A stretch of 64,000 nt of DNA from Poseidonia sp. GTDB taxonomy: Archaea; Thermoplasmatota; Poseidoniia; Poseidoniales; Poseidoniaceae. The notes under the pieces were generated by a model, which saw only the letters and a program-made list of their open reading frames with translations, ran no database searches and was not told where the DNA came from. Positions 1 through 59,541 of the stretch are shown in pieces; position 1 is the first letter of the stretch, and each line of letters begins with the position of its first letter. Both the position numbers and the translations under genes were made by a program. The stretch spans positions 316,515 through 380,514 of the forward strand of contig CBFIDD010000002.1 of assembly GCA_965661285.1 (NCBI GenBank), read 5' to 3'.

Positions 1-71
1 TGCCCTCGCCATCAAGTTCAACTTCGTATTCCGTCCCGTTCACGATGACTTTTCGTGTATCTGTCATGCGA

Positions 72-263
72 TTACCTCCATGGGGAGCGCCCTGCGCGGG
101 CGTTCATCAGCGATGTTTGTCCGGTCATTTGACGACGATGGTCCTGCGACCAAGCAGAACCGGGCTGGCGAGCGATTTGAGCCGGGTCATCACCGTCGCC
201 TTGCGTGGCAGCAATGACTGCCGCGATGGCGGCCATCATCAATTCAGAGATTTCTTCAGCCAC
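72..263 (-). CDS. small ORF (63 aa) immediately downstream of pccB on the same strand; possible small acyl-CoA carboxylase-associated subunit, speculative
   Basis: Starts 10 nt after the pccB stop on the same strand. Ala-rich N-terminus (MAEEISELMMAAIAAVIAATQ). No family match can be asserted from sequence alone. Confidence 0.2.
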   Translation of the reverse strand: MAEEISELMMAAIAAVIAATQGDGDDPAQIARQPGSAWSQDHRRQMTGQTSLMNARAGRSPWR

Positions 264-272
264 TTTATCACC

Positions 273-1829
273 TCAAAGCGGAATATTGCCGTGCTTTCGA
301 GCAGGTCGGAGTTCTTCCTTGTCCATCAGCATCTCGAGCGCCCGGCTCAAACGCTGTCGTGTTTGGTTGGGCTCAATCACATCGTCAAGGTAGCCCAGCG
401 CCGCCGCTTTGTACGGATTGGCAAAGGTCTCTTTGAAATCCTCCGTGAGCCGCTCGCGCTCTTGCTCAGGGTTTCGAGCGTGGGCGATGCGCCGGCGGTG
501 AATGATCTCAACCGCACCGTCAGCCCCCATCACGGCCAGCTCTGCTGAAGGCCATGCGACGTTGTAATCACCACGAATGTGCTTGCTCGACATGACATCG
601 TAAGCACCGCCGTAGGCCTTGCGGAGGATCACGGTCAACTTCGGCACGGTGGCCTCGGCAAACGCATAGAGGAGTTTCGCGCCGTGGCGGATGATGCCAC
701 CCCATTCTTGGTTGGTTCCAGGAAGGAATCCTGGAACGTCCTCAAAGGTGAGGATCGGGATGTTGAAGGCATCACAGAACCGAACAAAACGAGCGGCCTT
801 GTCGCTGGCGTCGATGTCCAAGCAACCGGCAAGAATCTTGGGTTGGTTGGCAACCACGCCGACCGTGTGGCCACCGAGGTGACCGAAGCCGACCACGATG
901 TTTTGCGCCCACTCGGCTTGAACTTCCATGAAACCACCGTCGTCCAACACCTCGGTGATGACGTCGAGGACATCGTAGGGTTTGGCCGCGTCGTCGGGAA
1001 TGATGTTGTCCAGCGCGTCGCAGGAACGGTCCTTGCTGTCCGAGGTCTTCTTCATCGGCGGTCGCTCAAGGTTGTTGGGCGGCAGCATGTCGCAAAGGTC
1101 CCGGGCCATTTGGATGGCGTGTTCGTCATCGCTGGCGGTAAAGTGCGAGACGCCCGACTTTGACCCGTGGGTGGCTGCACCACCAAGGTCCTCGAAACTG
1201 ACCACTTCGTTGGTGACCGTCTTGATGACCTCAGGACCGGTGATGAACATGTGGGCGGTTTGGTCGACCATGATGACGAAATCGGTGATGGCCGGTGAAT
1301 AGACAGCACCGCCTGCACAGGGGCCCATGATGACCGAGATTTGTGGAACGACACCCGAGGCACGGACGTTGCGGAAGAAAATCTCGGCGTAGGAGCCAAG
1401 CGACGCCACGCCTTCTTGGATACGAGCGCCACCGGAATCATTCATGCCAATCACGGGACGACCGGTCTTGAGCGCCATGTCAAGAACCTTGCAAATCTTG
1501 AGGCCGTGCATTTCACCAAGCGAGCCACCGTAGACGGTGAAATCTTGAGCGAAGGCGAAGACTTCCCTCCCGTTGATGGTGCCGTGGCCGGTGACCACAC
1601 CGTCCCCGGGGATGACGTTCTTGTCCATGTCAAAATCACGGCATCGGTGTTCGACCAACGCATCAATCTCCTGGAAACTGCCATCATCGAGCAACAATTC
1701 GAGGCGCTCACGAGCCGTCATCTTCCCTCGGTTGTGTTGGGCTTCAACACGGGCTTGACCGCCGCCAGCTTCGCTGCGAGCCTTGCGATTTCGTAGGTCC
1801 TTGAGTCGCTCTTCGGTGCCAGACATCAA
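273..1829 (-). CDS. pccB: propionyl-CoA carboxylase / methylmalonyl-CoA carboxyltransferase beta subunit (acyl-CoA carboxylase carboxyltransferase)
   Basis: 518 aa. Strong carboxyltransferase hallmarks: [74 protein letters not shown], full-length two-domain layout. Confidence 0.9.
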
Positions 1830-7862: not shown

Positions 7863-8191
7863 CCGGCGCTGACGAGCTGCGCAAGCGCCGCGAGCAAGAG
7901 GCGCTTCGTATTCGTACGGCGCTGAACCGGCAGCGTGGCGAACAGCGTGCCAACACCAAGGGAGGCGAAGGAACCGTGGCCTTTGTTGAGGAACGCAAAT
8001 GCATCGGTTGCGACCAGTGCACCATCGTCTGTGATGACGATGCGATTGAACTCTACTTCGTGGATGTCCGCAGCCCGCTGATGTCGGTGGAGAGCAACCG
8101 GAAGGCGAAGATCATTCGAGATGCGTGCACAGGATGCCGATTGTGTGTCCTCGCATGCCCAACCGATGCCATCACGATGATTGACCGATGA
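7859..8191 (+). CDS. 4Fe-4S dicluster ferredoxin-domain protein
   Basis: Two CxxCxxCxxxC(P) motifs: CIGCDQCTIVCDD and CTGCRLCVLACP. 110 aa. Overlaps the upstream gene by 4 nt. Confidence 0.7.
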   Translation: MTGADELRKRREQEALRIRTALNRQRGEQRANTKGGEGTVAFVEERKCIGCDQCTIVCDDDAIELYFVDVRSPLMSVESNRKAKIIRDACTGCRLCVLACPTDAITMIDR

Positions 8192-8489
8192 GGTGAACCC
8201 CATGTCAAAGAAAGGAAAAGATGCAACAGCCCAGCGATTTGGAGGCGAATTTGGCCCTTACAGGAAACCCGGCACGGAAGGCGTTTCGCTGTCGACCTTC
8301 AAGAACCTGGTATGGACTTCGAATATCGGAGGTTTGCTCCTCGTCGTGCTCGCTTTGGAACTGCTCTTTGTCCAGCAGCGATTCATGTGGGGCTTCCTGT
8401 CCTTGGTCGCCGGTGTGGCCATCGCCCTGTTCCCGTCCAACTACGAAATCGTCGGGATGAGCGACGAGGACGAAGACGACGCATCGTGA
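8181..8489 (+). CDS. small membrane protein with acidic C-terminus
   Basis: 102 aa. Two hydrophobic helices (LLLVVLALELLFV, LSLVAGVAIALF). Ends DEDEDDAS. Overlaps the ferredoxin gene by 11 nt. Confidence 0.35.
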   Translation: MTDEVNPMSKKGKDATAQRFGGEFGPYRKPGTEGVSLSTFKNLVWTSNIGGLLLVVLALELLFVQQRFMWGFLSLVAGVAIALFPSNYEIVGMSDEDEDDAS

Positions 8490-8515
8490 TGAGGCGTATC
8501 AATCGGTAGCGTCTG

Positions 8516-8587
8516 ACAAGACCCACTGCAAGCCCTCTGATGAGGTCAAAACGAATCAGTGGGTTTGTGCATTGACCCTTTGATTCG
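8516..8587. repeat. left ~72-bp inverted repeat bounding the low-GC cassette
   Basis: 8521-8587 (ACCCACTGCAAGCCCTCTGATGAGGTCAAAACGAATCAGTGGGTTTGTGCATTGACCCTTTGATTCG) matches the reverse complement of 11679-11751 with only a handful of mismatches. Internal hairpin potential (ACCCACTG ... CAGTGGGT). Confidence 0.75.
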
Positions 8588-8611
8588 TTAGTATAACCAT
8601 TGAATCAGCCT

Positions 8612-9799
8612 CTACTTTGCTTTTCGATCTGAATATGAACTCAACCATGCCTCATCAATCATTTCGTTAATCCAATATTTACTTCGTTTTATTATCGTCA
8701 TGAGTTGCCTTCCATGTATTAACTTCAATGGATATCTTAGTTCATGAACCTCTTCTTGTGCTTGTTTTGAGAAAAATGAGGTGGTGACATAAATCCCATA
8801 TTCTCCTCTGTCGAGTCTTGCAACTAAGCGCGATAATTGAACGGGATTAATGTAGTTTGAACTGGCATACCTCTTCACCTCTCCTTTCAATTTAATCTCA
8901 AATCTGAATGGTTCATCAATCATCATTGAACCTATGAAATCAAATCCTCCGTCTCCACTATTCTTGGTTTTTTCTAGATTTTTGAATAAAGTGCCTCCGA
9001 CTTCAAGGAAAAGATCAACGATTATTTGTTCAAAGACATACGGGTTAATTTCATTCAAGCGTTCCAATGCCATCCATTCTGGAGAATTGGTTGGTGGTAA
9101 TTGATCTTCTTTTGTCAAAATTGAATCATTCCAAGCGGTAAGATATGAGTGGGCATTCCTTGATACGTATTCTCTCCAAGCAAGAGGAGATTTGTCCAGT
9201 CGGGAATCAAGTTCCTCATGCTTGCGCCAATTCGTCAACCAATCAATCGCAACCTGTGGGGTATTTAGAATTCGTAAAGTTGCTCTGTAATTCCTAACAG
9301 GTATGTCTCCATCCATGAACCACTCAACGTCTAATTTTTCTAGAATGCACAAACCGTTGAAGCGATTATATCCCGTTCTTTTTGTGAAATGGAGAATGAA
9401 GGAAGGTTGAGTTGAACCGTTGCGGAGGTTTTCATCGAGCGCCTTCAGTACTTTGTTTCCTTTGAAATCATCAAGAGACTTATCTGGGTCTGCAACTGAA
9501 TCGCCCCAGTAATAAATTACACCATTGTGCTGGTCAACAATATCATCCCAAGGTTTAGGAGTATTCGTTTTACCTGAGTGAGTGAACAAAAACACACCGT
9601 CAATTTGCTTCTTTCTTGATGAGTTTGGAGATTTCAATGCTCTAATGCCCCCTGCATTAGTCAACCCGGATTCAGGTAGGTTAACCCAACTCAGAAATTG
9701 GTCTTCCGGATCGTCTTTCCTTTTTGCGTCTCTGTACTCTTTGCCGACCTCAAAGAATTTCCCAGAGCCTGCTGTAATCCAGTTATCTGAACCACTCAT
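8612..9799 (-). CDS. Mrr-catalytic-domain (PD-(D/E)xK) nuclease fusion; candidate modification-dependent (Type IV / MspJI-AspBHI-like) restriction endonuclease with an unassigned N-terminal ~250-aa domain
   Basis: C-terminal 130 aa match the Mrr_cat pattern: FEQIIVDLFLEVGG ... SGDGGFDFIG ... EIKLKGEVKRY ... GIYVTTSFFSKQAQEEV ... LKLIHGRQL (D ... ExK intact). N-terminal domain has no obvious family. Solo gene, no methyltransferase nearby. Low GC. Confidence 0.7.
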   Translation of the reverse strand: MSGSDNWITAGSGKFFEVGKEYRDAKRKDDPEDQFLSWVNLPESGLTNAGGIRALKSPNSSRKKQIDGVFLFTHSGKTNTPKPWDDIVDQHNGVIYYWGDSVADPDKSLDDFKGNKVLKALDENLRNGSTQPSFILHFTKRTGYNRFNGLCILEKLDVEWFMDGDIPVRNYRATLRILNTPQVAIDWLTNWRKHEELDSRLDKSPLAWREYVSRNAHSYLTAWNDSILTKEDQLPPTNSPEWMALERLNEINPYVFEQIIVDLFLEVGGTLFKNLEKTKNSGDGGFDFIGSMMIDEPFRFEIKLKGEVKRYASSNYINPVQLSRLVARLDRGEYGIYVTTSFFSKQAQEEVHELRYPLKLIHGRQLMTIIKRSKYWINEMIDEAWLSSYSDRKAK

Positions 9800-9840
9800 G
9801 AATTCCCCTCAACTGTTGTGGTAATTGAAATTATCACATT

Positions 9841-9925
9841 AATCAGAGGGTCACTCTGATTAGGCCTCAAAGCAGAGGGTACCCACTGCTTACCCATCTG
9901 AGCAAAGGGCGCCCTCTGAAGAATA
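9841..9925. repeat. degenerate third copy / hybrid of the cassette repeat between the nuclease gene and the TetR gene
   Basis: AATCAGAG-GGTCA-CTCTGATT palindrome (9841-9861). TCAAAGCAGAGGG. ACCCACTGCTTACCCATCTGA (cf. ACCCACTGCAAGCCCTCTGAT in the left repeat). GGGCGCCCTCTGAAG. Confidence 0.5.
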
Positions 9926-9935
9926 ATTATCCAAC

Positions 9936-10586
9936 CTAGATCCAACCCTTAAGAATCGTGTGTATACCCGCTTTTAGTTCAACACTCATATCGAGGTTAA
10001 GAAACGTTAAGTCTGGGTGTTTAAGGGCAGATTTGGAAGGGCTTGAGGGGTTTGCCAGAGGATAAAGTCCCAAGGCGAAAGCCAACATCTGTCCAAATGC
10101 TTGAAGGGCATCTTCTAGTCTGGTAAAATGCCCGTTTCTCATTAATGCCTCTGCACCTCTCTGCATGAGTGAGAGTAGATTCAACTTATGTTCAATTAGC
10201 ACTTCAACTGAAACCTCTCGTTCATACAATGCTGGAGTAAGTGAAAAAAGAGAAAGAAAGCGATATTCCTTGAGAAAGATTTTGGTGATGGCACTCGCAA
10301 ACATATCTAAATCGCTTAATTCAAGTTTGGAATCTTCCTCTAATCCGAGAACTACGTCCTCAAAATCGCATAGATGAACATGAAGAAGCAACGATTGGAT
10401 GTTCTCAAAATATCTGTAAATACCGCTCGGTGAAATTCCAACCGAGCTGGCAAGCGGACGCATTCGAAGATCCAGCGGGTCAGTTGTTTTGAGAAGCGTG
10501 CGGACGGCTTCAACAATCGCTCTTTTTCTGACTTCACGATGCTCAGTTGAACGAGCGCGTTGGAAGGGAATCTCTGGGCCAGTCAT
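9936..10586 (-). CDS. TetR/AcrR-family transcriptional regulator
   Basis: N-terminal HTH (RKRAIVEAVRTLLKTTDPLDLRMRPLASSVGISPSGIYRYFENIQSLL). 216 aa. Divergent from an SDR gene. Confidence 0.8.
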   Translation of the reverse strand: MTGPEIPFQRARSTEHREVRKRAIVEAVRTLLKTTDPLDLRMRPLASSVGISPSGIYRYFENIQSLLLHVHLCDFEDVVLGLEEDSKLELSDLDMFASAITKIFLKEYRFLSLFSLTPALYEREVSVEVLIEHKLNLLSLMQRGAEALMRNGHFTRLEDALQAFGQMLAFALGLYPLANPSSPSKSALKHPDLTFLNLDMSVELKAGIHTILKGWI

Positions 10587-19099: not shown

Positions 19100-20544
19100 T
19101 CGACCACTTCGATATCATCGTCCCAAGCAACCTCGGTCGCAAGAACATCAGGTTCCTTCCAGTCCACATCTGTACCGATGTCTTCAGCGGCTACATCGGG
19201 CGCTGAAACAGGCTCGGAAGCGTCAGCATTCTCCTCGTTTTGCGAGCCGTCATCATCGGCGGGGGCGGAGACCACCGGAGGTTCTGGAGCGATGGTTGCT
19301 GCTTCAACAACCCGCTTAATGTGCTCTTGCGATTCGGTCTGACCCATCGTTTGGCGAAGGATGCGAGGTTGAATCCAGAAAAACGTCAACGCCACCACGA
19401 GGTGGCCAGCCATCATGACCGCTCGAACATCATCCAGAACAGTGGTTAACATGGCGACACTCCCTGCGTAAGCATAACCAAAAGCGAGCCCCATGGGCAA
19501 GGCGTTCTCGGTCCTGACGAGTTTCAGCGGTGAGCGGAACGAACGCGAGGTCAGACCCCAGATCGCCATCAGCACCGTGAAGGCCATCAAGAGGAATTCC
19601 TCGAGAAAGAGAACGGCTGAACCCGGGGAAATAAATTGGTGCCGCCAAACGGTGAGCAGGTGCCACGTGATCATGAACTGGCTTAGGAGAAACCAGCGCC
19701 CAGCGAAGCGGTGGAAATCGGTGCGGGCCGAAGCTTCCAGCCGTGCACCATGAGAACGCCGCCAAGCGAGTGCAAAAACAACGGAAACCATCACGAGGAA
19801 ACCAATGTTTCGAAGCACAATCTCGCCCGGGGTGCTTGAGCTGTCCGCCATCATCTCGAACACATAGAGCAGAAGCGCAGTGAGCGAGAGAATGATGGCC
19901 AACGGCATCGCCATCGAACGGGTGGAGAGGCCTGGTTCACGAGCTGCTGATTCGGGGAGTTTCGATGCCGATACTGAACTGAGCCAGCGACCAAAGCCTC
20001 GACCTTGAACGATGGCCCAGAGGACAAAACAGGAAGACAGCACCCAAGGTATGAGCGAAGAGAGATCCGCAAGCGCTCCCTGCTCCCCCAGCAACAACAC
20101 CAACAGCCCGAACATAACGGCGGAGAGGATCAGCGGAAAAATGCAAATGCGAAACGAGAACACCATGCGTTGGACCTTTGTTCGGTCCGACGAGGCGTCT
20201 TTGGGGAGTTGAATCCAACCCTGAACGGTTGGACGGTTTGCCAGCAATCCCGTCAAGAAATAACCGCTTGAGAGCGCCAAAAAACCGAACGCACTCATCG
20301 CCTCAAACGCATTGACGGCAGCGAGTTGCAGGAGCGATGAAAGAACGATGATGAGCACGATGTGGGGAAGCGTTGAGAAGCTCAAAAGAAGACGGAGCAA
20401 GGTCATCAGGGAAGCGTCTTCTTGTTGAAGATGCGCAAGGGTCGCTCCCCCTTCATGGGACACCGCCTCTCCATCGCCATCCATGGTGTTTCCTGACGCC
20501 GACCCATATTGAGGGTATTCCTTCTCTACGAAGTCAAACATCAT
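19096..20544 (-). CDS. polytopic membrane protein with acidic cytoplasmic termini, unknown function
   Basis: 482 aa, about 10 hydrophobic helices. C-terminal tail extremely acidic (DDDGSQNEENADASEP ... WDDDIEVVD). Confidence 0.5.
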   Translation of the reverse strand: MMFDFVEKEYPQYGSASGNTMDGDGEAVSHEGGATLAHLQQEDASLMTLLRLLLSFSTLPHIVLIIVLSSLLQLAAVNAFEAMSAFGFLALSSGYFLTGLLANRPTVQGWIQLPKDASSDRTKVQRMVFSFRICIFPLILSAVMFGLLVLLLGEQGALADLSSLIPWVLSSCFVLWAIVQGRGFGRWLSSVSASKLPESAAREPGLSTRSMAMPLAIILSLTALLLYVFEMMADSSSTPGEIVLRNIGFLVMVSVVFALAWRRSHGARLEASARTDFHRFAGRWFLLSQFMITWHLLTVWRHQFISPGSAVLFLEEFLLMAFTVLMAIWGLTSRSFRSPLKLVRTENALPMGLAFGYAYAGSVAMLTTVLDDVRAVMMAGHLVVALTFFWIQPRILRQTMGQTESQEHIKRVVEAATIAPEPPVVSAPADDDGSQNEENADASEPVSAPDVAAEDIGTDVDWKEPDVLATEVAWDDDIEVVD

Positions 20545-20568
20545 GAACAGGAGACCTCACCCCCCACC

Positions 20569-20955
20569 ATGGCCAAGCGGCTGACAAAGGCCCTGCGGGG
20601 GAAACGCCGATGGGTCGGGGTCGGCGTCCACCAGCGTTTTCAGGACCGCCCCTCAGTGGAGAAGGGCCTTGAAAAGGTCCAGAAGGCGATGGCATCCCAA
20701 CCCAACCTCCGCCTGATGGACTTCAAAACCATCCAACAACGTGGTGCGTTGGCCGAGCAGCCCGAGTTGACCGACCTTCCGCAGCAAGACGGACTGGCCA
20801 TTGTGCGTGTGCCGCACAACGCCATTCGGGACATACGGAAACTCCTCGAAGAAGAGGACGCCATGGACAAATGGGGATTTCAAAGTTTGACCACCAGCGG
20901 CAAGATTCGCTTGGTTCGCCAACGACTTGGTCTACCAAAACCAAAGCGGAAATAA
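20569..20955 (+). CDS. RNase P protein subunit Pop5 (Rpp14-like)
   Basis: MAKRLTKALRGKRRWVGVGV resembles the Pop5 N-terminus (LPPxLRxKKRYIAF). Also GLAIVRVPH ... SGKIRLVRQR. Start chosen at the internal Met to avoid overlap with the divergent membrane gene. Confidence 0.5.
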   Translation: MAKRLTKALRGKRRWVGVGVHQRFQDRPSVEKGLEKVQKAMASQPNLRLMDFKTIQQRGALAEQPELTDLPQQDGLAIVRVPHNAIRDIRKLLEEEDAMDKWGFQSLTTSGKIRLVRQRLGLPKPKRK

Positions 20956-21036: not shown

Positions 21037-21528
21037 ATGGGAGGAGGAGGTACGGCGCCCGCTATGAAGATGAGCGATGTCTTCATCCTGACCGGGCTTA
21101 CCCTACTTCTTGGTGGCCTTTTCCTTCATGCTTGGGTCACCCCCATCGACCACAGCGGTGAAGACCCATCCTACACCAACGGCGCTTCCATGATGAAAGG
21201 CGATGAGTTCGCGTTCAGGGTGACGGTTGAAGCCGAAACCACCCTCCGCATTGTGGTGATGGACGATGAGAACACCATCCTTAGCGCCGAAAATTTCGTG
21301 CTTGCCGCCGGTGAAGAGCACAACGAACGAATCACCATGGAGACATCCGGCTACTACACGTACGAGATTGACACCAAAGGCGTCAATGCAACCATTGAAA
21401 CCGATATTGTGCGGAAGTACATGATCGACATGCTCCCCTTCCCCGTGGGTGCACTCCTCCTCGGCTTTGGATTGTATCAGCGCAAAGAAGTGGATGACGA
21501 GGTGCTGGACGCCGAGTTAGACGCCTGA
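21037..21528 (+). CDS. small bitopic membrane protein, unknown
   Basis: 163 aa. N- and C-terminal hydrophobic helices. Acidic C-terminal tail. Confidence 0.4.
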   Translation: MGGGGTAPAMKMSDVFILTGLTLLLGGLFLHAWVTPIDHSGEDPSYTNGASMMKGDEFAFRVTVEAETTLRIVVMDDENTILSAENFVLAAGEEHNERITMETSGYYTYEIDTKGVNATIETDIVRKYMIDMLPFPVGALLLGFGLYQRKEVDDEVLDAELDA

Positions 21529-22971
21529 CCACGTCACATCCTCTGGCTCGTCAAGCGCCTCGATGCCCTCGAGCCGCAATGAACCATCGACATTGACACC
21601 GAGGAGGTTGGATTCTTGACCTCTATAGAGAAGAGGTCCAAGCAGTTCTTCGCCGTGCAGAACCGCTTGTTCAACCTCGTCAGAGGAATCCAACCGTGGA
21701 AGAAGCGCCAGTCGTTCAAACAACGAAGCGACCATGGCATGAAGTTGAGGATGAAGGTCGGCTGAGCAGACTTGATGACCGAGGTCCTGAAGACTGCCAT
21801 GTTCGTCACCGCTGGCGTCAAGATTCAAGCCGATGCCCAGGATCACATGATGGGTCTCGCCTTGAGATATCGCCTCAAAGAGAACGCCACCTGCTTTTTT
21901 CATGTGGCCGTCCGATGAGCGAACGAACAGGTCGTTGGGCCATTTCAAGCACACATCTCCTGCCATTGCACCGCTCATGAACCGGACCATACGGGCCATG
22001 GCCTCTCCAACCCGTAACTGGTCTGCCGTAACGTGAGACCACCCTTGACCCGAATGGACAAGCCACGAGGCCATGAACGCCCCCGGGTAGGATTGCCATG
22101 TTCGTCCTCGTCGACCTCGCCCGGTGGTTTGTTTGTCCGCACGAACGGAGGCCCCGACAGCACCTGCGAACGCCATGACATCGTCGTTCGTACTCTCGGT
22201 GTGTGAGCGATACACCACGGGAGCGTCGACGTAGGGTTTCCACACCGCAATCACCGACAAGTGCTCTTCGTCCGCAAACGAGCGGGTGGCAACACAACGA
22301 GCAGCCATGCCAGCCGCCCACGCCATTTCGCACGCCGTATCACCCACGCCTTTGGAAGAAACCGTCATGTAAGCAACACCGTGCGGCGAAAGGAGGTTCG
22401 AGGAAGCCAGCCGGTGAAGCATCCGAACGTACAGACCTGTTTGGTCGTTGTCCGTGAGTGCCGCTTCCTCAAAGGGCCCCAGTTTCGCTCCCCGCAACGC
22501 ATCACCACCCAAATAAGGCGTGTTCCAAACGACCACGTCGTAGGTTTGATCGCCGCCCCATTGCGCGGACAAGCCGTCATCGGTGGGCCCTGGACCCCCC
22601 TCGAGAACGGTCGCACGGAGGCCATGCTGCTCGAAGTGGGCACGCGTGCAGGCAACAGCAAACGGATTGACATCGCACGCAGTGATAAGACAACCCAATC
22701 GCGCGGCGTAAAGGGAGAGCACACCCGAACCACAACCGATTTCCAGCCATCGCGTTTTAGGCGTCAAGCGCTGCGATGTCAGGACGGAAGCGAGGAGGTC
22801 GGTGTCCTCCCGAGGAGGATAAACTGTGGGGGGCACGGACATCGAGAAGACCTCACCGTTTGGCGCCTTCCAATCAACCAACGTTGCCGCCCGGACAAGG
22901 CGCTCAATCTCGGCCTCCGCATCAGCGGCATGGAAGGATTCATCACCACTCATGCACCGTCCAAAACGCAA
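21517..22971 (-). CDS. birA: bifunctional fusion: N-terminal HemK/Mtq2-like SAM-dependent methyltransferase + C-terminal biotin--[acetyl-CoA-carboxylase] ligase (BirA)
   Basis: MTase half: LEIGCGSGVLSLYAARLG (motif I), DVNP, NTPY (NPPY-type motif IV). BirA half: QTTGRGRRGRTWQS and KWPNDLF. 484 aa single ORF. Confidence 0.75.
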   Translation of the reverse strand: MRFGRCMSGDESFHAADAEAEIERLVRAATLVDWKAPNGEVFSMSVPPTVYPPREDTDLLASVLTSQRLTPKTRWLEIGCGSGVLSLYAARLGCLITACDVNPFAVACTRAHFEQHGLRATVLEGGPGPTDDGLSAQWGGDQTYDVVVWNTPYLGGDALRGAKLGPFEEAALTDNDQTGLYVRMLHRLASSNLLSPHGVAYMTVSSKGVGDTACEMAWAAGMAARCVATRSFADEEHLSVIAVWKPYVDAPVVYRSHTESTNDDVMAFAGAVGASVRADKQTTGRGRRGRTWQSYPGAFMASWLVHSGQGWSHVTADQLRVGEAMARMVRFMSGAMAGDVCLKWPNDLFVRSSDGHMKKAGGVLFEAISQGETHHVILGIGLNLDASGDEHGSLQDLGHQVCSADLHPQLHAMVASLFERLALLPRLDSSDEVEQAVLHGEELLGPLLYRGQESNLLGVNVDGSLRLEGIEALDEPEDVTWSGV

Positions 22972-23154: not shown

Positions 23155-23228
23155 GGGCCTGTAGCTCAGTCAGGTAGAGCGTCGGACTTTTAATCCGATG
23201 GTCGCGGGTTCGAACCCCGTCGGGCCCG
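23155..23228 (+). tRNA. tRNA-Lys (anticodon UUU)
   Basis: 74-nt cloverleaf folded by hand. Acceptor GGGCCTG/CGGGCCC (one G-U). D-stem GCTC/GAGC. Anticodon stem TCGGA/TCCGA with loop CTTTTAA. T-loop TTCGAAC. Discriminator G. CCA not encoded. Confidence 0.9.
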
Positions 23229-23277
23229 CCTGATTGGTCTGCCGGCGCGGTGTGGGTGGGCGATCCGGGGAGTAAAA

Positions 23278-23928
23278 ATGGTCGTAAAGAGTGCAACAAA
23301 AAAGCGATTGATGGAACTTGGCGTCTCCGAAGAGTATGCCCACAAACTCGCTACCGACCGAAACATGACCGACATCAAAAACATGTCTCACGACGATGTC
23401 GCCACCACCCTGGGAATTTCCAAAGACGCTGAGGAATTTATCAACACCATGCGCATCATCGCCGAGCAAGGCTCTCGCCGCCGTGCCGCCAAGAAGAGCA
23501 CGAAAATCACCATCCGTGCCAAAGCCGTTGACGACATGGATCGTCCGGAAATCACCTCCCGCTTCAACGCCCTCAACCACGTGCTCGTTCCCCACCAGGA
23601 ACTCGTCGGCGAGGCCAACATCTCACCCGAAGAACAACTCGCCATCGAGATGGAAGAACTCGCACCTTGGAAGATGGTGCAACCCGATGCCGAGACCGGA
23701 GAAGACCGCCTCGCAAAGGAACTTCTTCCGAAGATTTTGATCACGGACCCCGTGGTTCAGGTCATCAAAGAATTCGCCGAAATTGCAGACGCTGCTGCCC
23801 ATGCGGCCAACCCCGACCACACCCCGTTGGCGGCTGGATGGATTGCAGACCGTGTGCTCAAGGTTGTCCGGCCATCCCCATCCGCCGGAAAGACGGTGGC
23901 TTACCGGCTCATCGTGGAGGGGAACTGA
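23278..23928 (+). CDS. rpoH: RNA polymerase subunit H (Rpb5-like) with ~90-aa N-terminal extension and internal insertions
   Basis: C-terminal region HVLVPHQELV ... LPKILITDPVVQ ... DRVLKVVRPSPSAGKTVAYRLIV matches RpoH. N-terminal [28 protein letters not shown] is paralogous to the N-terminus of RpoA'' ([28 protein letters not shown]). Located immediately upstream of rpoB. Confidence 0.7.
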   Translation: MVVKSATKKRLMELGVSEEYAHKLATDRNMTDIKNMSHDDVATTLGISKDAEEFINTMRIIAEQGSRRRAAKKSTKITIRAKAVDDMDRPEITSRFNALNHVLVPHQELVGEANISPEEQLAIEMEELAPWKMVQPDAETGEDRLAKELLPKILITDPVVQVIKEFAEIADAAAHAANPDHTPLAAGWIADRVLKVVRPSPSAGKTVAYRLIVEGN

Positions 23929-27558: not shown

Positions 27559-32308
<4,750 letters not shown>

Positions 32309-32352: not shown

Positions 32353-32652
32353 ATGGATCTAAGCCGACAACTGAAGAACGCAATCGCAACAGGAAACCTG
32401 TTGTTTGGACAACGACAAACCAAGGACGCCTGCGCAAACGGGAACGCCAAAATGGTCATTGTGGCAGCCAACTGCCCCGAAGATTACACGACGGCCCTGC
32501 GTGCTGCCCACCCAGAAGTGAGCATGCATCGCGCACGCATGGTGAACCGAGAACTGGGTATTGCCTGTGGTAAACCCTTCTCCGTTTCCACCATCACCGT
32601 CCTCGACGCTGGCGATAGCGACTTGATGGCCCTCGAGAGCAACGTTGAGTGA
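32353..32652 (+). CDS. rpl30e: ribosomal protein L30e
   Basis: MDLSRQLKNAIATGNLLFGQRQTKDACANGNAKMVIVAANCPED is a typical L30e N-terminus. Conserved position after rpoA''. Confidence 0.85.
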   Translation: MDLSRQLKNAIATGNLLFGQRQTKDACANGNAKMVIVAANCPEDYTTALRAAHPEVSMHRARMVNRELGIACGKPFSVSTITVLDAGDSDLMALESNVE

Positions 32653-32704
32653 ACCCTCATCAACGGGACAAAGGCTTGATGGCCTTTGGTGCACACGACA
32701 AACC

Positions 32705-35700
32705 ATGCGAGTGAATCGTGTTACTCTAGCGGCGACCCTGACGGCCCTGCTCTTGTCCAGCCTTCTGCTGAGTGCAGCCGTCAACCCCGCTCAAGAACAA
32801 CCGCTATTGGATGGAGAAGAACACATCGTCCACACCTCAGCACGGTCGACCTCAGCCGAAGTGTTCCTCTCGAGCGGAGGTTCAACCACACACGACGAAT
32901 TTTCAGGAGCCATCGCTGCATCCGACAACGGCTACGTGGTCGCAGGTGACGTGAATTCATCAGCGTCAACCCTCACCTTTGGCCCACATTCCTACACACC
33001 AACCTCTCCATACAGCAACGGCAACGATTTCTTCGTGGCTTCGTTGAACAACAACGGGGGATGGAATTACCTCGTCGGCGCCGACCACACCCAAGGTGGC
33101 GTTTCGTTCATGTCGGATGTGACCTCGCACGCCGGGAATGCCATCGTGGCCGGTTACATGTACGGGCCGGTTGATTTTGGGCCAACGACCCTCTCTTCAG
33201 CCGTGCAGTTTGACGCCTTTGTGGCCCAGACCGATGCCGCAGGAAATTGGATGTGGGCCAAAGGGTTCCAAACCCTCCCGAACTCATCCACCGACTCGAG
33301 CATACCGCAAGCCATCACCGTTGACCAGGTAGGCGACGTGATCGTCGCAGGATATTTCTCCGGTGAAACTGACTTTGGCGGCACCACCATCAACGTCTCA
33401 AATCCCGAAGTGTTCATCGCGAAATTGGACGGAGCGAACGGCGCTCTCAAGTGGGTCGTCAGTGGAGGAGGCATCGGTACGCAGCAGGTCACGGATGTCG
33501 TGGTGGATCCAAGTGGAACGATTCATGTTTCGGGCGTAACGCAAAACAACATACGTTTTGGAACACAAAGTTACAACACCATCGGAACAACTGATTCGTT
33601 TATTGTCAGGGTTTCAAATTCGGGCGCAATCCTCGGCATCAGCGGCTATGGCATCCCCAACCAGGCTGTATCACTTACCAACATGGCCGTGGACAAGAAT
33701 GCTGATCTCTACATCGGCGGCTCGTTTGAAGGTACAATGGCGAAAAACGGATGGTCCATCACCGCCAATAAAGGTGGTTCGGATTTATTTTTCATCAAGG
33801 AAGGAGCTACCCCAAACAATCAGTGGGCCGTTATCGGTGGCACCAACGCAGCCGACAGCTTGCGAGGTATGGAGGTCACATCGAAAGGCGAGCTTGTCTT
33901 CACCACGTTTTTCATCAGTTCGACCTTTACCGGCGGCACCAAAGGAGCGACGCCTACCAGCAGTAGTTGGTACAATAATCAAGCCATTGATGCTCTGATG
34001 GGTGGATTGACAAATACAGGTGGTTGGTCCTGGCTGGATGTTACGTCCAGCAACGCTCTCGAGCTTGGATGGGGATTAGCCTTGAATTCCAGCGATATTG
34101 CCACCGTCGTAGGCTCCTACGCAGGACCATCAGGTAGCGATACCATCACGAAAGGCAGCACAAGCGTCACCACGACGGGGGGTTGGGATAACTTTGTTTG
34201 GGCATTGGATCCGAGCATGAAAGCTGACAGCGACAACGACGGCGTGCCAGACGTGAACGATAACTGCCCCAGCGATGTCAACCCGCTTCAGGAAAACACC
34301 GACGGGGACGCACAGGGTGATGCATGCGATTCGGATGATGACAACGATGGCATCACGGACAATTCTCCGGACAACTGCCCCAGAGGTGGAGCGGCGAATT
34401 GGGGCTCCACACAGAACTTTAACGACCCGGCCAACTCCACCGATTGGGACCGAGATGGATGCAAGGACGATGTCGAAGACGCAGACATGGACAACGACGG
34501 CGTGGAAAACGATGTTGACCTTTGCCCACGCACGTCCTACCAACCGCCTCGCCCGACCTGGGTTTCTGATGAAATTACGGATGTTGACAGTGATGGTTGC
34601 CGAGATGCGGACGAGGATACCGATGATGACGGCGACGGATTTGAGGACGTCAGCGATGACTGCCCAACGGTGATTGGTAACTCAACCCTCGGTGAGGAAG
34701 GGTGCGTTGACAACGACGGCGATGGTTGGTCAAACAATTTCGATGACTGTCCTAACGATTTCGGCAACTCAACGCTGGGCGGCAAGAACGCCTGCCCCGA
34801 CATGGACGGCGATGGTTGGGCCGACGTTGACGACGCCTTTATCGAAGACCCAACACAATGGTCGGACGCTGACGGCGACGGCTACGGCGACAATCCCGAA
34901 GGAACCACGCCGGACGATTGCCCGGCGGCGGTTGGCACCTCGGTTTTGGACCGCCTCGGCTGTTTGGACACCGACGGCGATGGGTATTCTGACCCCGATA
35001 GCATGTGGGACGCAGAATCCGGCGCTGACGCCTTTATCGAGGACACAACGCAATGGTCCGACTTCGACGGCGACGGCTACGGCGACAACTATGCGAACGA
35101 TACATGGACGGACCGCAACCCGTCTTGGCCCGGCGAATATCGAGACGATGTCGTGCTCCAAGACGCCTGCCCCACGCAAGAGGGCACATCGTGGCAAAAC
35201 GGCATGATCGGTTGCCCGGACCAAGACGGTGATGGATGGTACAACCTCCAAGACGCCTTCCCAAACGACGCCACACAGTGGTCTGACGGTGACGGTGACG
35301 GCTACGGCGACAACGCTTCTGGAAACGATGCCGACCAGTGTCCAGACATCGCTGGCACCTCCACCACCGACCGGTTGGGTTGTGTTGATAGCGATGATGA
35401 CGGATATTCTGACCCCGACATCACATGGACACCGGCTCAAGGTGCTGACGCCTTCATGGCCGACCCTACGCAGTGGGCTGACCAGGACAACGATTTCTTC
35501 GGCGATAATCCCGCTGGCGACCGCCCCGATGACTGCCCGACCGTTCGTGGCACCTCCTTCATCGACCGCTTTGGTTGCGAGGACAGCGATGGCGATGGCC
35601 TCTCCGATGCCACCCCTGAATGGACGCTTGAACAAGGAGCAGATGCATGTCCCCTGGCTTACGGGAACTCGAGTGCTGACCGAATTGGCTGCGTGGACAC

Positions 35701-36187
35701 CGACGGGGACAACTACTCTGACCCAACACCTGATTATCGTGCAGAAGACGGTGCTGACGCCTATCCACAAGACCCGACGCGCTGGATTCTCGAACCGGAG
35801 GAAGAAGGCGCGCTCTTCGCCTCGAGCAACGTGCTCGTCGGCGGTGGCGTTGGACTCGTGGTGCTTCTCGCCCTGATCGGATTCTTCATGCGTGGACGTC
35901 GGCCAAAGAGCGACAACGCTGCTTGGGAGATACCGCCAACCGTCGGAATGCCGGACTTCAACGCTCAACCCGCAGCCATTTCGCCGGGATACGCAGCGCC
36001 GGTCGCCATGCCCGACTTCAACGCTCAACCCGCCCAGGCCACTGTGGCTGCTCAACCCGCCTATGCACCGCCCGTGGCACAGCCTGACCCCGCTCGGGAG
36101 TACTACAACAGCCTCATTGCACAGGGGTACCCACACGATGATGCCGTGCGATATACTAAGCAATACTTCAACCAGTTCCACGGTTGA
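32705..36187 (+). CDS. large type-I membrane-anchored surface protein: signal peptide, SBBP-type beta-propeller repeats, ~20 thrombospondin type-3-like Ca-binding repeats, TM, Pro-rich cytoplasmic tail
   Basis: Start set at MRVNRVTLAATLTALLLSSLLLSAAV (signal). Propeller-like units (GDVIVAGYFSGETDFGG, DSFIVRVSNSG). Repeated DxDxDGxxD units (DTDGDGYSD, DQDGDGW, DGDGDGYGDN). TM LVGGGVGLVVLLALIGFF. Tail with tandem MPDFNAQPA. Confidence 0.7.
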   Translation: MRVNRVTLAATLTALLLSSLLLSAAVNPAQEQPLLDGEEHIVHTSARSTSAEVFLSSGGSTTHDEFSGAIAASDNGYVVAGDVNSSASTLTFGPHSYTPTSPYSNGNDFFVASLNNNGGWNYLVGADHTQGGVSFMSDVTSHAGNAIVAGYMYGPVDFGPTTLSSAVQFDAFVAQTDAAGNWMWAKGFQTLPNSSTDSSIPQAITVDQVGDVIVAGYFSGETDFGGTTINVSNPEVFIAKLDGANGALKWVVSGGGIGTQQVTDVVVDPSGTIHVSGVTQNNIRFGTQSYNTIGTTDSFIVRVSNSGAILGISGYGIPNQAVSLTNMAVDKNADLYIGGSFEGTMAKNGWSITANKGGSDLFFIKEGATPNNQWAVIGGTNAADSLRGMEVTSKGELVFTTFFISSTFTGGTKGATPTSSSWYNNQAIDALMGGLTNTGGWSWLDVTSSNALELGWGLALNSSDIATVVGSYAGPSGSDTITKGSTSVTTTGGWDNFVWALDPSMKADSDNDGVPDVNDNCPSDVNPLQENTDGDAQGDACDSDDDNDGITDNSPDNCPRGGAANWGSTQNFNDPANSTDWDRDGCKDDVEDADMDNDGVENDVDLCPRTSYQPPRPTWVSDEITDVDSDGCRDADEDTDDDGDGFEDVSDDCPTVIGNSTLGEEGCVDNDGDGWSNNFDDCPNDFGNSTLGGKNACPDMDGDGWADVDDAFIEDPTQWSDADGDGYGDNPEGTTPDDCPAAVGTSVLDRLGCLDTDGDGYSDPDSMWDAESGADAFIEDTTQWSDFDGDGYGDNYANDTWTDRNPSWPGEYRDDVVLQDACPTQEGTSWQNGMIGCPDQDGDGWYNLQDAFPNDATQWSDGDGDGYGDNASGNDADQCPDIAGTSTTDRLGCVDSDDDGYSDPDITWTPAQGADAFMADPTQWADQDNDFFGDNPAGDRPDDCPTVRGTSFIDRFGCEDSDGDGLSDATPEWTLEQGADACPLAYGNSSADRIGCVDTDGDNYSDPTPDYRAEDGADAYPQDPTRWILEPEEEGALFASSNVLVGGGVGLVVLLALIGFFMRGRRPKSDNAAWEIPPTVGMPDFNAQPAAISPGYAAPVAMPDFNAQPAQATVAAQPAYAPPVAQPDPAREYYNSLIAQGYPHDDAVRYTKQYFNQFHG
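34850..35320 (+). repeat. coding near-tandem DNA repeats (~45-bp units) inside the TSP3 region
   Basis: CAATGGTCGGACGCTGACGGCGACGGCTACGGCGACAAT at 34852, a near-identical copy at 35047 and another at 35272. Encodes (T)QWSDxDGDGYGDN. Confidence 0.5.
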
Positions 36188-41880: not shown

Positions 41881-44800
41881 TCACCGCTGCGGGATGGCTT
41901 GCATTTGAGCGATTTCACCGCTCATTCGCGTCAGTGCTTGGACAGCGACCTCTTGGTGTTGAGGGCCCATCTCTTCTCGACTGTACCGGGCCATCTCAAA
42001 CGTGTTGTCGAGGGCGGTCAGAGCATCCTCTGACACGCCCTGCAGCGCTTGGCGGATGGCGAATTCGAATTCCCGAACGGTTTCGAAGTCACGTCGGAGG
42101 AAGCCACGCTGCTGCAGCAGACCGCAGAGGTCCTGATAGCAGGTGAAGATGGCTTCTCGTGTTGCATCCCCGGCCGCCAACAACTCGGCGGTGTAAGCGA
42201 AGACCTCGGCCGCATCCTTGAGCAGGTCGTCGGCGAGTTGCTTTCGTCGGTACATCACGACGCCACCGGCGATGAGCGCGGCGAGCGCAAGCACGAGGAG
42301 GTAGGACCACCACGGTGTTTCCGCTTGTTCTTCTGCAAATTCGTATTGCACAGCAAAGCCTTCACTTCGCAGTGATTCAAAGCCCTGAAGGCTTTGGGCT
42401 GAAAGGCGAGGATCGTTCACGATGATATCCATGGTCAACTGGCCCCAAACATCAGCATCGCCGTATGGCGGGTCAGCATCGAACACAAAGGTGGCTTTCC
42501 CGGTTTCATCGGTTTGAGCACCACGGTTGGCGAGTTGGGATTGGTTGGCATCGTAGAGATAAATGACAACATCAATCCCCGGCAAGCCCGTACCCGTATC
42601 TTCGGCGATAACGGTGAGGGAACCGCCCACGTCTTCTTGTTCGTCCTCAACCACCTCGAGGAGGTCTACGGTGATGACGGCGTCGACCTGTACAAACACC
42701 GTTTGACTGATGCTGGCAGCGTTGAGGTAAAGGGAATCGTTTCGAGCGACGTCAAGGAAGAAATACTGCGAACCGACTTCGAGCCAATACGGCGCCGTTG
42801 CGGTCAGCGAGAAGTTTCCGTTTGACCACACGACGCTGCTCTCTGTGAAGCAGCGTGCTCCTTCCCGACCACCCTCACAATCCGAACCGTTCCCAATGCT
42901 CAGCAGGAGGTTCTCAAAGACCTCACCTGAGCCTCCGATCTCCTGCACAGAACCCGAATAGAAGACGGGTTCAAACACACTATCAGAGCGGGTGACGACG
43001 TTCGTGTTTGAAGTTGGGTCGACTTGAATCAACAGGTCAGCCCATACCCGAACACTGCTTTCTACGTCGGCTGGAAGATGCGCCTGCGTCCCTCCAAAGA
43101 CCACGCCGATGGTGTGTTCGCCCCGGGACAAGTCCATGGTTGCAGGCACCGTTGCGCTCCACGCACCATCAGCACCGGTGGTGGTCGTGAAGAGCGTGTT
43201 TCCGTCGAGTTGGACGAGCAATTCGAATCCGACCAAACCGTCGCGGTCAACGGTGTCGAAGTCGTACAGGCGGCCACTCAATTCCCATGTGTCGCCACGG
43301 GTGGCATCAATACCATCGTCGAACACCAAGGTGACCCATGAACGATGGGAGAGGAAGAACGAGACGTTTCCTTCCCCGGCACGGTAATATCCTTGTGGGG
43401 GTGATTCTGCGAACAAGGTTCTGTTCCCGAAGTCAAAGATGTCGGGAACGACCCAGTCATAGGTGAACGCACCGTTTTGGTCGGTGGTCAAGGTGGAGAT
43501 GACGATGCCTTCCACGACCAGTTGAACTTCGTGGTTTGCAACGCCCACGAGTTGATTGTCAACCACCGAACCGGTGATGGTCACGGTTTGGTTCACCGCC
43601 ACCGGCGAGGAAATATCCACCGTTACGAGGACTGGACTGAAGATTTCCCACAAACCACTGGCGTTGCTGGGGAGGTAAGCCACGGTCCCGGTGAATCGGG
43701 TTTCCAGAACCACTGGACCAAGCGGAGCGTCTGCGGGCACAGGATGGACCGCAGAAAACTCGCCAAGTTCGTCCGTCGTCGTGTTGGTCAGCCACTGACC
43801 ACCCAGCCATACCTCGATGGTCAGGTTCGGTAGCGGGTTGTCAACCACATCGAGAAGACGGCCTTGGATGGTGATCGTTGTTTCTCGGTCGGCATCGCCT
43901 GTTGCGGTCAACAGGAGAATCTTCGTGGGTACGCTAACGTTGAATTCCACCATCGCAGAGCTGGGTTGGTAGTATTCGGGATTGTTGGTGTCCCCGTAGC
44001 CGACAGGGTCAACCCATTCACGACCACCACGGAACTCCACCGAGATTTGGTGGGGACCTGCAGCCGTGTCTTCTGGGAGCGCGTACGAAAGGGTGTATGC
44101 ACCCGAGATGTTGTCCGTTTCAATGCTGGCAACGGGAACGCCATCGATGAGAAGGTGCACCACGGCAGTGGAAGGTACACCGTTTCGTTGCAAGACCAAG
44201 CCCAGGTCGTCCAACAGCGTGCCGTTCACGACCAACATGTCGCCAGCCACCAGCACCGTTGGTGCTTCGGTGATGGTAACCTCGGTCGCACCGAGGACGA
44301 CAAAGGACGAACTGGCGTTGGTTCCAATGATGCCCGTGGTGCCGGCGATTCCGGTGTAGTCCGCATGGATGCCGGTCGGGCCGACGCTCATGTTGGCTGG
44401 GACGGTCAGGTTGCCCCAAGCAGAACCGTTGGAAGCCGTCAAGACCGTGATTTGGACGGGTGAAGCATCGTTCAGCGTCGCCGTGAGCGAGACGAGGACG
44501 CTTTGATTAGCCAGCGGGAGGCCTTGGTTGTCCCGGAGGAGAATCGAGAACTCAACGATGTCTCCCCTTTCGGTTCGGTCGTTCAACGAGGGTTGACCGA
44601 TACCGTCAAGTGCGGGGAGAATGAAATTCATGACCGAGAACCCACGAGAATCGAACGAGGTGTTGTTGGTCGAGCCAACGTAATAGTTGACACTCGGGAT
44701 GTAGGTGGCTTCCATCACGTGGCTACCAGCGGCGAAGGTTTCACTGAGGCGAATCGTGGCGTTCCAATACCCATCAGCACCGACGGCACCGCCTGTGGCG

Positions 44801-54954: not shown

Positions 54955-55971
54955 ATGGAAGGAAAACCGCTCCCAATGGCCTCTGCAAGCGAGCCCCGCA
55001 CGCCCGCTCGCCGCCTCCCGGAATGGTTCCGCACCAGCTTGCCGAGCGGTGAGCAACAGGCCACCTTCAACGCCACCAAGTCGGCGGTCAAGGACAACAA
55101 ACTCCACACCGTATGCGAAGAAGCACGATGCCCCAACATCCACGAGTGTTGGGCCAGCGGCGACGCCACGTTCATGATCGCCGGCCAAGAATGCACCCGC
55201 GGCTGTCGCTTTTGCGCGGTGGGCACCATCAAGCGACCACCGCCCCTTGACCCGGAGGAACCGCAGCACCTTGCCCAAGCCGTCGGCTCGATGAATCTCC
55301 GTCATGCTGTCATCACCGTTGTGAATCGGGACGACCTTCCCGACAGCGGCGCGGACCACTACAAGCAATGCATCGACGCGGTGGCGACCACCTCGCCTGA
55401 AGTGACGCTCGAACTCTTGTGTTCTGACCTTGCTGGAGATCTCGATGCCCTGGCCCATTTGTTGGACCAGAGTCCTTTGTCGGTGTTTGCTCACAATGTG
55501 GAGTGCGTCCCCCGACTGGACGCAACCGTCCGGGATGCTCGAGCCTCGTTCGGTCAGTCCATTGCCATCCTCAAGGAAGCCAAACGCCTGCGTCCGGACA
55601 TCATCACCAAATCCTCGCTGATGGTGGGTGTTGGCGAAACCGATGAAGAAATTGACGAGGCTCTCGGCCTGCTTCGAGACGCCGGCGTTGACCTCGTGAC
55701 CATCGGGCAATACCTTGCACCGTCCAAAAAACACCTGCCAGTGGACCGATTCCCTGAGCCCGAACGCTACGACGAGTGGGCAGAGAAAGCCATGCAACTC
55801 GGCTTCTCGGGGGTTGCCAGCGGCCCGCTGGTTCGGTCCTCCTACAAAGCCGGCCTCTTGGTGCGGAAAACCCTAGACCCCGAGAACAGCGAAACCATGC
55901 TGGGCGCCTATGTTCGTGTTGCTCAACCCCATCCTTCCCTACCGACACCACTTAAGACGGACGAGCCCTGA
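54955..55971 (+). CDS. lipA: lipoyl synthase
   Basis: CEEARCPNIHEC and radical-SAM CTRGCRFCAV motifs. RLPEWFRTSLP N-terminal region. Immediately upstream of the 2-oxoacid dehydrogenase operon. Confidence 0.9.
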   Translation: MEGKPLPMASASEPRTPARRLPEWFRTSLPSGEQQATFNATKSAVKDNKLHTVCEEARCPNIHECWASGDATFMIAGQECTRGCRFCAVGTIKRPPPLDPEEPQHLAQAVGSMNLRHAVITVVNRDDLPDSGADHYKQCIDAVATTSPEVTLELLCSDLAGDLDALAHLLDQSPLSVFAHNVECVPRLDATVRDARASFGQSIAILKEAKRLRPDIITKSSLMVGVGETDEEIDEALGLLRDAGVDLVTIGQYLAPSKKHLPVDRFPEPERYDEWAEKAMQLGFSGVASGPLVRSSYKAGLLVRKTLDPENSETMLGAYVRVAQPHPSLPTPLKTDEP

Positions 55972-55980
55972 GGTGAAGCA

Positions 55981-57222: not shown

Positions 57223-57228
57223 GGTGAG

Positions 57229-58242: not shown

Positions 58243-58244
58243 AC

Positions 58245-59531: not shown

Positions 59532-59541
59532 GGTCGATGAG

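Follow-up and report, generated by a model that had tools for sequence, protein, structure and literature searches.

A stretch of 64,000 nucleotides from Poseidonia sp. (assembly GCA_965661285.1, contig CBFIDD010000002.1, positions 316,515 to 380,514 of the forward strand; hereafter the window) carries a gene in which a methyltransferase domain of the Mtq2/HemK2 type is joined to a complete biotin protein ligase (BPL) of the BirA type. The two-enzyme architecture characterizes the Poseidoniales (Marine Group II archaea), in which all of the relatives found have it. In the reading that we favor, and to which we give about an even chance, the product is a bifunctional polypeptide made of a group-I-type BPL and an Mtq2-derived, probably Trm112-independent methyltransferase, with the GGQ motif of the release factor aRF1 as the most probable methyl acceptor. 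The covalent fusion had been proposed in an earlier note made from the sequence alone (the original prediction), and a Pfam search, which that note had suggested, finds both domains on one chain.

The gene lies in a single uninterrupted minus-strand open reading frame (ORF), 21517..22971, which comprises 484 amino acids if counted from a TTG at 22971. The uninterrupted frame had been correctly described; the start had not. The TTG is a mechanical ORF start only, and the true product, as judged from its relatives, is a protein of 478 amino acids, because close homologues begin at the ATG at 22953 (MSGDESF...) and a 96% identical protein (P0001) is itself 478 amino acids long. Residue numbers refer to the 478-residue frame throughout, except for the ranges of Pfam and NCBIfam matches, which refer to the 484-residue frame. 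The whole gene and the junction between its halves are located as follows.

21517..22953, minus strand: whole coding sequence of the methyltransferase-BPL fusion, 478 amino acids plus stop, from the conserved ATG at 22953.
22195..22242, minus strand: domain junction, residues 238-253, from the last methyltransferase strand (W-K-P-Y) to the S-T-N motif of the BPL.

Both halves score above the Pfam gathering cutoffs. MTS (PF05175) matches residues 57-157 with 31.8 bits against a cutoff of 23, and BPL_LplA_LipB (PF03099) matches residues 278-383 with 52 bits against a cutoff of 21. The NCBIfam models PRK14968 and TIGR00537 (archaeal Mtq2) align almost end to end with residues ~44-244, and birA_ligase (TIGR00121) aligns with residues ~254-391. 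The motifs that had first drawn attention to the gene are all present, EIGCGSG (71-77) and WNTPY (143-147) in the first half and GRGRRGRTW (278-286) and KWPND (337-341) in the second, and N-T-P-Y does occupy the position of NPPY.

A survey of related genomes, also called for in the original prediction, shows that the same fusion recurs in hundreds of independent marine assemblies, with more than 600 protein clusters sharing the architecture. A search of a collection of 5.8 billion proteins returned 670 relatives at E<=1e-5. Of the best 120, which are between 96% and 37% identical to the query, almost all have a length of 478-540 amino acids, align over its full extent and contain both Pfam domains. 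When the methyltransferase half was used alone in an exhaustive HMMER scan, ~75 further 50%-identity clusters of 430-560 amino acids were obtained, reaching down to 31% identity, and these carry KWPND or PF03099 as well. Wherever relatives are named below the phylum they are always Poseidonia sp., Poseidoniaceae or Poseidoniales; the other records say only Euryarchaeota or Methanobacteriota archaeon. Close and distant members share the same neighbors. Upstream of the fusion gene, in divergent orientation, come a long-form rpoH and then rpoB and rpoA; on the downstream side there are small ORFs and an FtsZ-like gene. The best apparently standalone match, P0293 (210 amino acids), was rejected as a fragment of a fusion.

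The two halves are also kept in a fixed relation to each other. The spacing from W-x-P-Y to S-T-N is 16 residues in 228 of 237 fused proteins, and the junction is free of insertions and deletions in the family alignment. An AlphaFold (AF2) model built with 38 homologues has a predicted local distance difference test score (pLDDT) of 86 and a predicted template modeling score (pTM) of 0.89, and from these values a defined inter-domain arrangement with rigid packing is predicted. In a comparison with the 96% identical relative, the ratio of nonsynonymous to synonymous substitution rates (dN/dS) was 0.25 in the methyltransferase and, within the BPL, 0.37 in the catalytic and 0.11 in the C-terminal domain; both halves are under purifying selection.

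These results bear on the possibility that a sequencing frameshift or a chimeric assembly has fused two neighboring genes. Shorter gene calls (353-406 amino acids), labeled only 'biotin ligase', do exist in databases. However, the same single ORF occurs in hundreds of independent assemblies, its neighbors and junction length are kept, selection acts on both halves, and the frame above one of the short calls, of 406 amino acids (locus L091), is open and encodes the whole methyltransferase N-terminus. An artefact is thereby already refuted, and we give it next to no weight. For the same reason the 406- and 353-residue calls were not accepted as cases of methyltransferase loss and are considered gene-caller artefacts: the calls of 353-406 amino acids (L091 3001-4221; clusters P0151, P0176 and P0177) are truncated calls of an ORF of 486-490 amino acids. 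The space separating rpoH from the fusion gene holds a gene for tRNA-Lys(UUU), at 23155-23230 on the plus strand, and its presence is probably why some gene callers choose internal starts for the fusion gene in related contigs. Annotation of full-length members is inconsistent as well. NCBI names conflict (methyltransferase, L11 methyltransferase, biotin ligase, hypothetical protein), and an automatic IMG label on some members reads 'biotin ligase/methylase of polypeptide subunit release factors'.

The C-terminal half is, by its sequence and fold, well supported as a complete and ordinary group-I-type BPL. Its features are listed here, with conservation counted over 308 fused proteins.

21769..22227, minus strand: BPL catalytic domain, residues 243-395 (PF03099, TIGR00121, PDB sequence matches, and Foldseek matches 3efs, 2deq and 1hxd).
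22096..22122, minus strand: biotin-binding loop G-R-G-R-R-G-R-T-W, residues 278-286, with G278, G280 and W286 at 100%.
21931..21945, minus strand: K-W-P-N-D, residues 337-341, with the catalytic lysine, which we take to be the equivalent of K183 of E. coli BirA (K 97%, W 99%, P, N and D 100%).
21520..21768, minus strand: BPL C-terminal domain, residues 396-478 (Foldseek span; lowest line of the dN/dS values above, 0.11).

The biotin-binding loop and the KWPND, STN and GxGxN motifs are all present and are 97-100% kept across the family. Fourteen positions reach 100% (S254, T255, Q275, G278, G280, W286, P339, N340, D341, K353, G356, G373, G375 and N377). The best solved BPL relatives by sequence are those of M. 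jannaschii, E. coli (BirA) and Aquifex. In Foldseek searches the C-terminal ~240 residues align with entire group I BPLs, over ~234-254 columns of chains of 221-235 amino acids, at TMt values of 0.63-0.76. The chains matched include Aquifex 3efs (E 3.9e-13, TMt 0.76), M. jannaschii 2ej9 and P. horikoshii 2deq with its related entries, and E. coli BirA was matched over its catalytic and C-terminal domains.

A candidate substrate for this ligase is encoded in the window, which contains pccB, as had been noted, and the beginning of a biotin carrier gene.

273..1829, minus strand: pccB, acyl-CoA carboxylase carboxyltransferase subunit and partner of the biotinylated carrier (Carboxyl_trans, E 6e-200).
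263..72, minus strand: ORF of 63 amino acids with a GTG start, between pccB and the start of the carrier gene.
1..67, minus strand: BCCP, the biotin carrier and presumed BPL substrate, first 22 codons; the gene runs off the window.

The orthologous operon in another Poseidonia metagenome-assembled genome (L092, 7001-9172) shows the full arrangement of pccB, a 63-residue ORF and a Biotin_lipoyl protein of 136 amino acids with the motif E-A-M-K-M. No biotin carboxylase gene is adjacent to these three genes. Genes for the B12-binding subunit of methylmalonyl-CoA mutase and for MeaB are placed divergently near pccB in the window. The ligase assignment is well supported because motifs, fold and the available BCCP substrate agree. 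The BPL half would thus be expected to make biotinyl-AMP and to pass biotin to the lysine of EAMKM on the carrier, which would belong to the pccB-BCCP carboxylase/carboxyltransferase system ~20 kb away from the fusion gene.

A lipoate-ligase identity for the C-terminal half was also considered and rejected, both for the motifs, which are of the BirA type and not of the LplA/LipB type, and for how far the matches extend. The window does encode lipoate-related functions at 54955-60972 on the plus strand, where lipoyl synthase (Radical_SAM and LIAS_N in Pfam) is followed by genes recognized by eye as E1alpha, E1beta, E2 and E3-like components of a 2-oxoacid dehydrogenase. No lipoate ligase or octanoyltransferase is visible in the 64-kb window.

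The N-terminal half belongs, by profile and fold, to the Mtq2/HemK2 superfamily. The features that it shares with Mtq2 are the following, where SAM stands for S-adenosylmethionine.

22228..22833, minus strand: Mtq2/HemK2-type class I SAM methyltransferase domain, residues 41-242 (Pfam MTS, NCBIfam, hhalign, PDB, fold).
22801..22824, minus strand: V-Y-P-P-R-E-D-T, residues 44-51, counterpart of the Mtq2 Y-x-P-x-E-D lid over SAM and the substrate glutamine.
22723..22743, minus strand: motif I, E-I-G-C-G-S-G, residues 71-77, the SAM-binding glycine loop, with G73, G75 and G77 invariant.
22513..22527, minus strand: motif IV, W-N-T-P-Y, residues 143-147, a variant of F-N-P-P-Y in which N, P and Y are 100% conserved.

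When the fusion-family profile was compared by hhalign with 22 standalone archaeal Mtq2 proteins, the match had a probability of 100% and an E-value of 3.2e-45 and covered positions 11-205 of 212. Of the solved structures, human HemK2/N6AMT1 is the closest in sequence (E 1.2e-7, residues 43-236), and the best fold matches are PrmC and N6AMT1-TRMT112. Among true standalone proteins, those closest to the fused domain carry HemK2/MTQ2 annotations, come from Thermoplasmatota, Bathyarchaeota and methanogens, and are encoded in ordinary contexts such as downstream of ksgA. In agreement with the original prediction that standalone Mtq2 is the norm, database searches with the methyltransferase half and with standalone Mtq2 show separate Mtq2 genes to be usual outside the Poseidoniales lineage.

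A column-by-column comparison of 135 standalone archaeal Mtq2 proteins with 298 fused domains was used to assess which residues have been retained. In the lid, V44 is kept in ~100% and Y45, P47 and D50 in 100% of the fused domains, as compared to 96% (V), 99% (Y) and 100% (P and D) of the standalone proteins. G73, G75, G77, the motif II aspartate D94, N144, P146 and Y147 are likewise at 100% in the fused family, and E230 is at 97%. In yeast Mtq2, mutation of Y15, D20, D77 or N122 reduced eRF1 methylation to 0% and mutation of E212 reduced it to 65%, and Y15, E19 and D20 are essential (PMC3152332). The retained residues of the fused family are the counterparts of yeast Y15, D20, D77, N122 and E212, together with the SAM-binding motifs. 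A loss of SAM-binding residues, named in the original prediction as a result that would count against it, is therefore not seen. Because the SAM-binding and glutamine-holding residues are retained, the domain looks competent for N-methylation of a planar amide or amine; it would bind SAM and hold the planar nitrogen in place for methyl transfer. The methyltransferase half is, on this evidence, most likely an active protein N-methyltransferase descended from archaeal Mtq2.

The same residues weigh on two other ideas about this domain. BPLs have repeatedly acquired N-terminal domains that modulate ligase activity, as in class II and eukaryotic BPLs, and the model predicts rigid packing of the two halves. 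The methyltransferase domain could accordingly be a structural or regulatory module that senses SAM or orders the ligase site and has no physiological methylation target. Sensing or scaffolding would have no need of N-x-P-Y, the Y-x-P-x-E-D lid or E230, yet these are 97-100% kept down to ~31% identity, and the methyltransferase half has at least as many invariant columns as the ligase half. We consider a purely regulatory role quite improbable. Less probable by far are a BioC-like action of the domain on a small molecule of biotin metabolism and its identity with the L11 methyltransferase PrmA. The motif I region does give Pfam matches to PrmA and to the generic Methyltransf_11/25 models, and NCBI calls some members 'L11 methyltransferase'. 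However, those Pfam matches span only ~50-80 residues around motif I, whereas the full-length matches are to Mtq2/HemK2 models and structures; N-x-P-Y and Y-x-P-x-E-D mark N-methyltransferases of the HemK/Mtq2 type, and no BioC model was among the top NCBIfam matches. The motifs and the length of the matches were thus the grounds on which we rejected the BioC and PrmA assignments.

The domain also shows clear signs of remodeling relative to Mtq2, among them the following two regions.

22543..22602, minus strand: rebuilt β3-β4 loop, E-GGPGP-xx-DG-xxx-QW-GG-D, residues 118-137, in place of the S-D-L-F motif III region.
22834..22953, minus strand: N-terminal extension, residues 1-40, with a helix (9-19) and a beta-hairpin; F7, E15, W28 and P31 are conserved.

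As compared to the Mtq2/HemK2 (N6AMT1, KMT9)-Trm112 system, the fused protein shares the class I domain, the lid, motif I, the motif II aspartate, N-x-P-Y and the C-terminal glutamate. It differs in its covalent BPL and in the ~25-40 extra residues at its N-terminus, an extension that standalone Mtq2 lacks. The fused family also has the rebuilt β3-β4 segment, which is longer than the canonical one, nearly invariant, and includes the invariant insertion GGPGP..DG..QWGG. The invariant D126 within it may stand in for the aspartate of S-D-L-F.

Several of these differences weigh against assigning the protein an ordinary Mtq2 function. The methyltransferase half fails the strict NPPY and S-D-L-F signatures and the curated hidden Markov model cutoffs of Mtq2/HemK2. 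TIGR00537 (hemK_rel_arch) scores 48.7 against a cutoff of 87 and PRK14968 scores 62.2 against 162. With the ligase model TIGR00121 at 74.3 bits against 83.1, covering profile positions 4-136 of 235, every NCBIfam match to either half falls under its curated cutoff. Of the 297 fused proteins that have motif IV at the expected position, 293 carry L, T or M as the second residue of NPPY and only 2 carry P, as compared to P in all 135 standalone proteins. W143 is found in 100% of the fused family, where standalone Mtq2 has F at 95%. The GG of the loop after motif IV has become (T/N)-D, the N-A-x-x-N motif is lost, and the canonical S-D-L-F of motif III is not recognizable. The changed positions, now fixed, are 95-100% invariant in the 135 standalone archaeal proteins. 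Mean identity between fused domains and standalone Mtq2 is 26.6%, as compared to 36% among standalone proteins.

The remodeled loop also has a bearing on the activator Trm112. Liger et al. showed that Trm112 docks on Mtq2 through β3 and the β3-β4 loop, which contribute to the binding of SAM as well (PMC3152332). The rebuilding of this docking loop, together with the conserved N-terminal helix and hairpin, suggests independence from Trm112, and we infer that the fused methyltransferase probably works without this activator. It seems unlikely that the BPL domain stands in for Trm112, because in the fold topology it attaches after β7, a long way from the β3 edge. A Trm112 substitute would more readily be sought in the N-terminal extension or in the loop insertion.

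Identification of the methyl acceptor depends in part on whether Poseidoniales have another Mtq2. Haloferax Mtq2 is required for methylation of the aRF1 GGQ motif, and an Mtq2 orthologue has been reported in all archaeal phyla (PMC6144793). There is no second Mtq2-like gene in the 64-kb window, and no canonical Mtq2 attributable to Poseidoniales was found in searches that were not exhaustive. In a profile search with the 22 standalone Mtq2 proteins, the best 120 of 3208 matches score 225-246 bits (Aenigmarchaeota, Methanomassiliicoccales, Bathyarchaeota and similar) and contain no Poseidoniales-like clusters. A profile scan of genome contigs with canonical Mtq2 returned archaea and bacteria, with no Poseidoniales among the at least 80 loci listed. 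The methyl acceptor would most probably still be the GGQ glutamine of aRF1. With this acceptor the two activities would be chemically independent, and the fusion would represent lineage-specific packaging of two housekeeping protein modifiers.

The alternative is that the methyltransferase half has switched to a new acceptor, most attractively BCCP/PccB or another protein close to the ligase, and that the enzyme is a coupled writer of two modifications. We regard this as rather unlikely. The changes at substrate-side positions that are invariant in canonical Mtq2, and their fixation in the fused family, are what give a new substrate some probability. The fused domains form one diverged clade, and the fixed-length junction and confident inter-domain geometry suggest that the two active sites stand in a defined relation. 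The fold of human HemK2/KMT9, as the names of its PDB entries reflect, can also take lysine. Set against these points, the glutamine-holding residues are all retained, and BCCP has an ordinary EAMKM motif without a G-Q sequence. The fusion gene is unlinked to carboxylase genes and instead lies beside the rpoH-rpoB-rpoA operon, and in 80 other genomes the Mtq2 and BPL genes are not neighbors. Full-text literature searches found no report of BCCP or PccB methylation, and we know of none.

One feature of PccB did resemble a target. Its N-terminus contains the sequence G-G-G-Q at residues ~20-26, reminiscent of the GGQ target of Mtq2. The glutamine is present in 94 of 120 close homologues, whereas 21 have S, A, G, D, K or T instead, and on account of these replacements the GGGQ sequence was dropped as a candidate. 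None of the carboxylase-linked targets considered found support, and the coupled modification of carboxylase subunits that had been put forward as a mechanistic idea is a speculative possibility. A further proposal, that the methyltransferase no longer serves aRF1, or no longer serves it alone, and has been retargeted within a rigid enzyme with two active sites, with carboxylase N-methylation or release-factor methylation coupled to the ligase, we hold to be unlikely.

The fusion protein can be placed beside known systems in which a BPL or an Mtq2-like domain has other partners. The group I BPLs of P. horikoshii (PH0147), Aquifex aeolicus and Methanocaldococcus jannaschii share with the window protein the catalytic and small C-terminal domains, and so the whole ~235-residue fold, as well as the GRGRxGRxW loop, the KWPND lysine and the STN and GIGxN motifs. 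The window protein differs in the 240-residue methyltransferase domain added at its N-terminus through the fixed 16-residue junction, and in scoring just under the TIGR00121 cutoff. E. coli BirA (class II) and the Bordetella-type BirA-CoaX (NCBIfam NF009862) resemble the fusion in combining a BPL core with another module on one chain, and a PycA-BirA fusion has been reported in Methanocella (PMC11237513). The added module is a DNA-binding winged helix-turn-helix in BirA, a pantothenate kinase in BirA-CoaX and a carboxylase subunit in PycA-BirA, whereas here it would be a protein N-methyltransferase. Bacterial PrmC/HemK shares the methyltransferase fold, with 2b3t as a top fold match, and has a similar E-x-x-A-L...D-G-L segment following motif IV. 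Unlike the window protein, PrmC carries a helical release-factor-binding domain at its N-terminus and a strict NPPY. No description of a fusion between a BPL and a protein N-methyltransferase was found in full-text literature searches or in the supplements of an archaeal fusion survey.

Other features of the window were recorded in passing. A conserved ORF downstream of the fusion gene (20509-20955, plus strand; 148 amino acids, or ~128 from the internal Met called in relatives) has no Pfam match and resembles, by eye, a Pop5-type subunit of RNase P. The RpoH-like protein (23278-23928, plus strand; 216 amino acids) is covered by Rpb5_C only over residues 145-212. It shares an N-terminal module of ~67 residues (45% identity, E 4e-13) with the RpoA''-like protein (30743-32308, plus strand; 521 amino acids), and the module is thus duplicated on two RNA polymerase subunits. 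The G+C content is 0.446 at 8001-10000, as compared to 0.55-0.59 elsewhere; this stretch, which includes ORFs at 8612-9799 and 9936-10586 (both minus strand), may be a foreign insert. Three very large ORFs, at 32645-36187 (plus strand, 1180 amino acids), 41881-50814 (minus strand, 2977 amino acids) and 50894-53869 (minus strand, 991 amino acids), probably encode secreted or surface proteins. The counterpart of the first beside the rpo operon in related loci (~1160 amino acids) gives weak matches to TSP_3 repeats.

Each half of the fusion protein is a familiar enzyme, and domain fusions are common. If the methyltransferase is simply the aRF1 methyltransferase of this lineage, the finding amounts to a correction of annotation. 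If it has a new target, the fusion would point directly at that target, and the protein would be the first archaeal Mtq2 derivative to act without Trm112 on a new substrate, as well as a BPL of a new class. The family also offers a natural experiment on Mtq2, in which the Trm112-docking loop has been rebuilt and NPPY altered, and which is informative on the way in which dependence on Trm112 and choice of substrate are encoded. Among the biotin protein ligases the fusion would constitute a new architectural class, one that is conserved across an order of very abundant, uncultured archaea.

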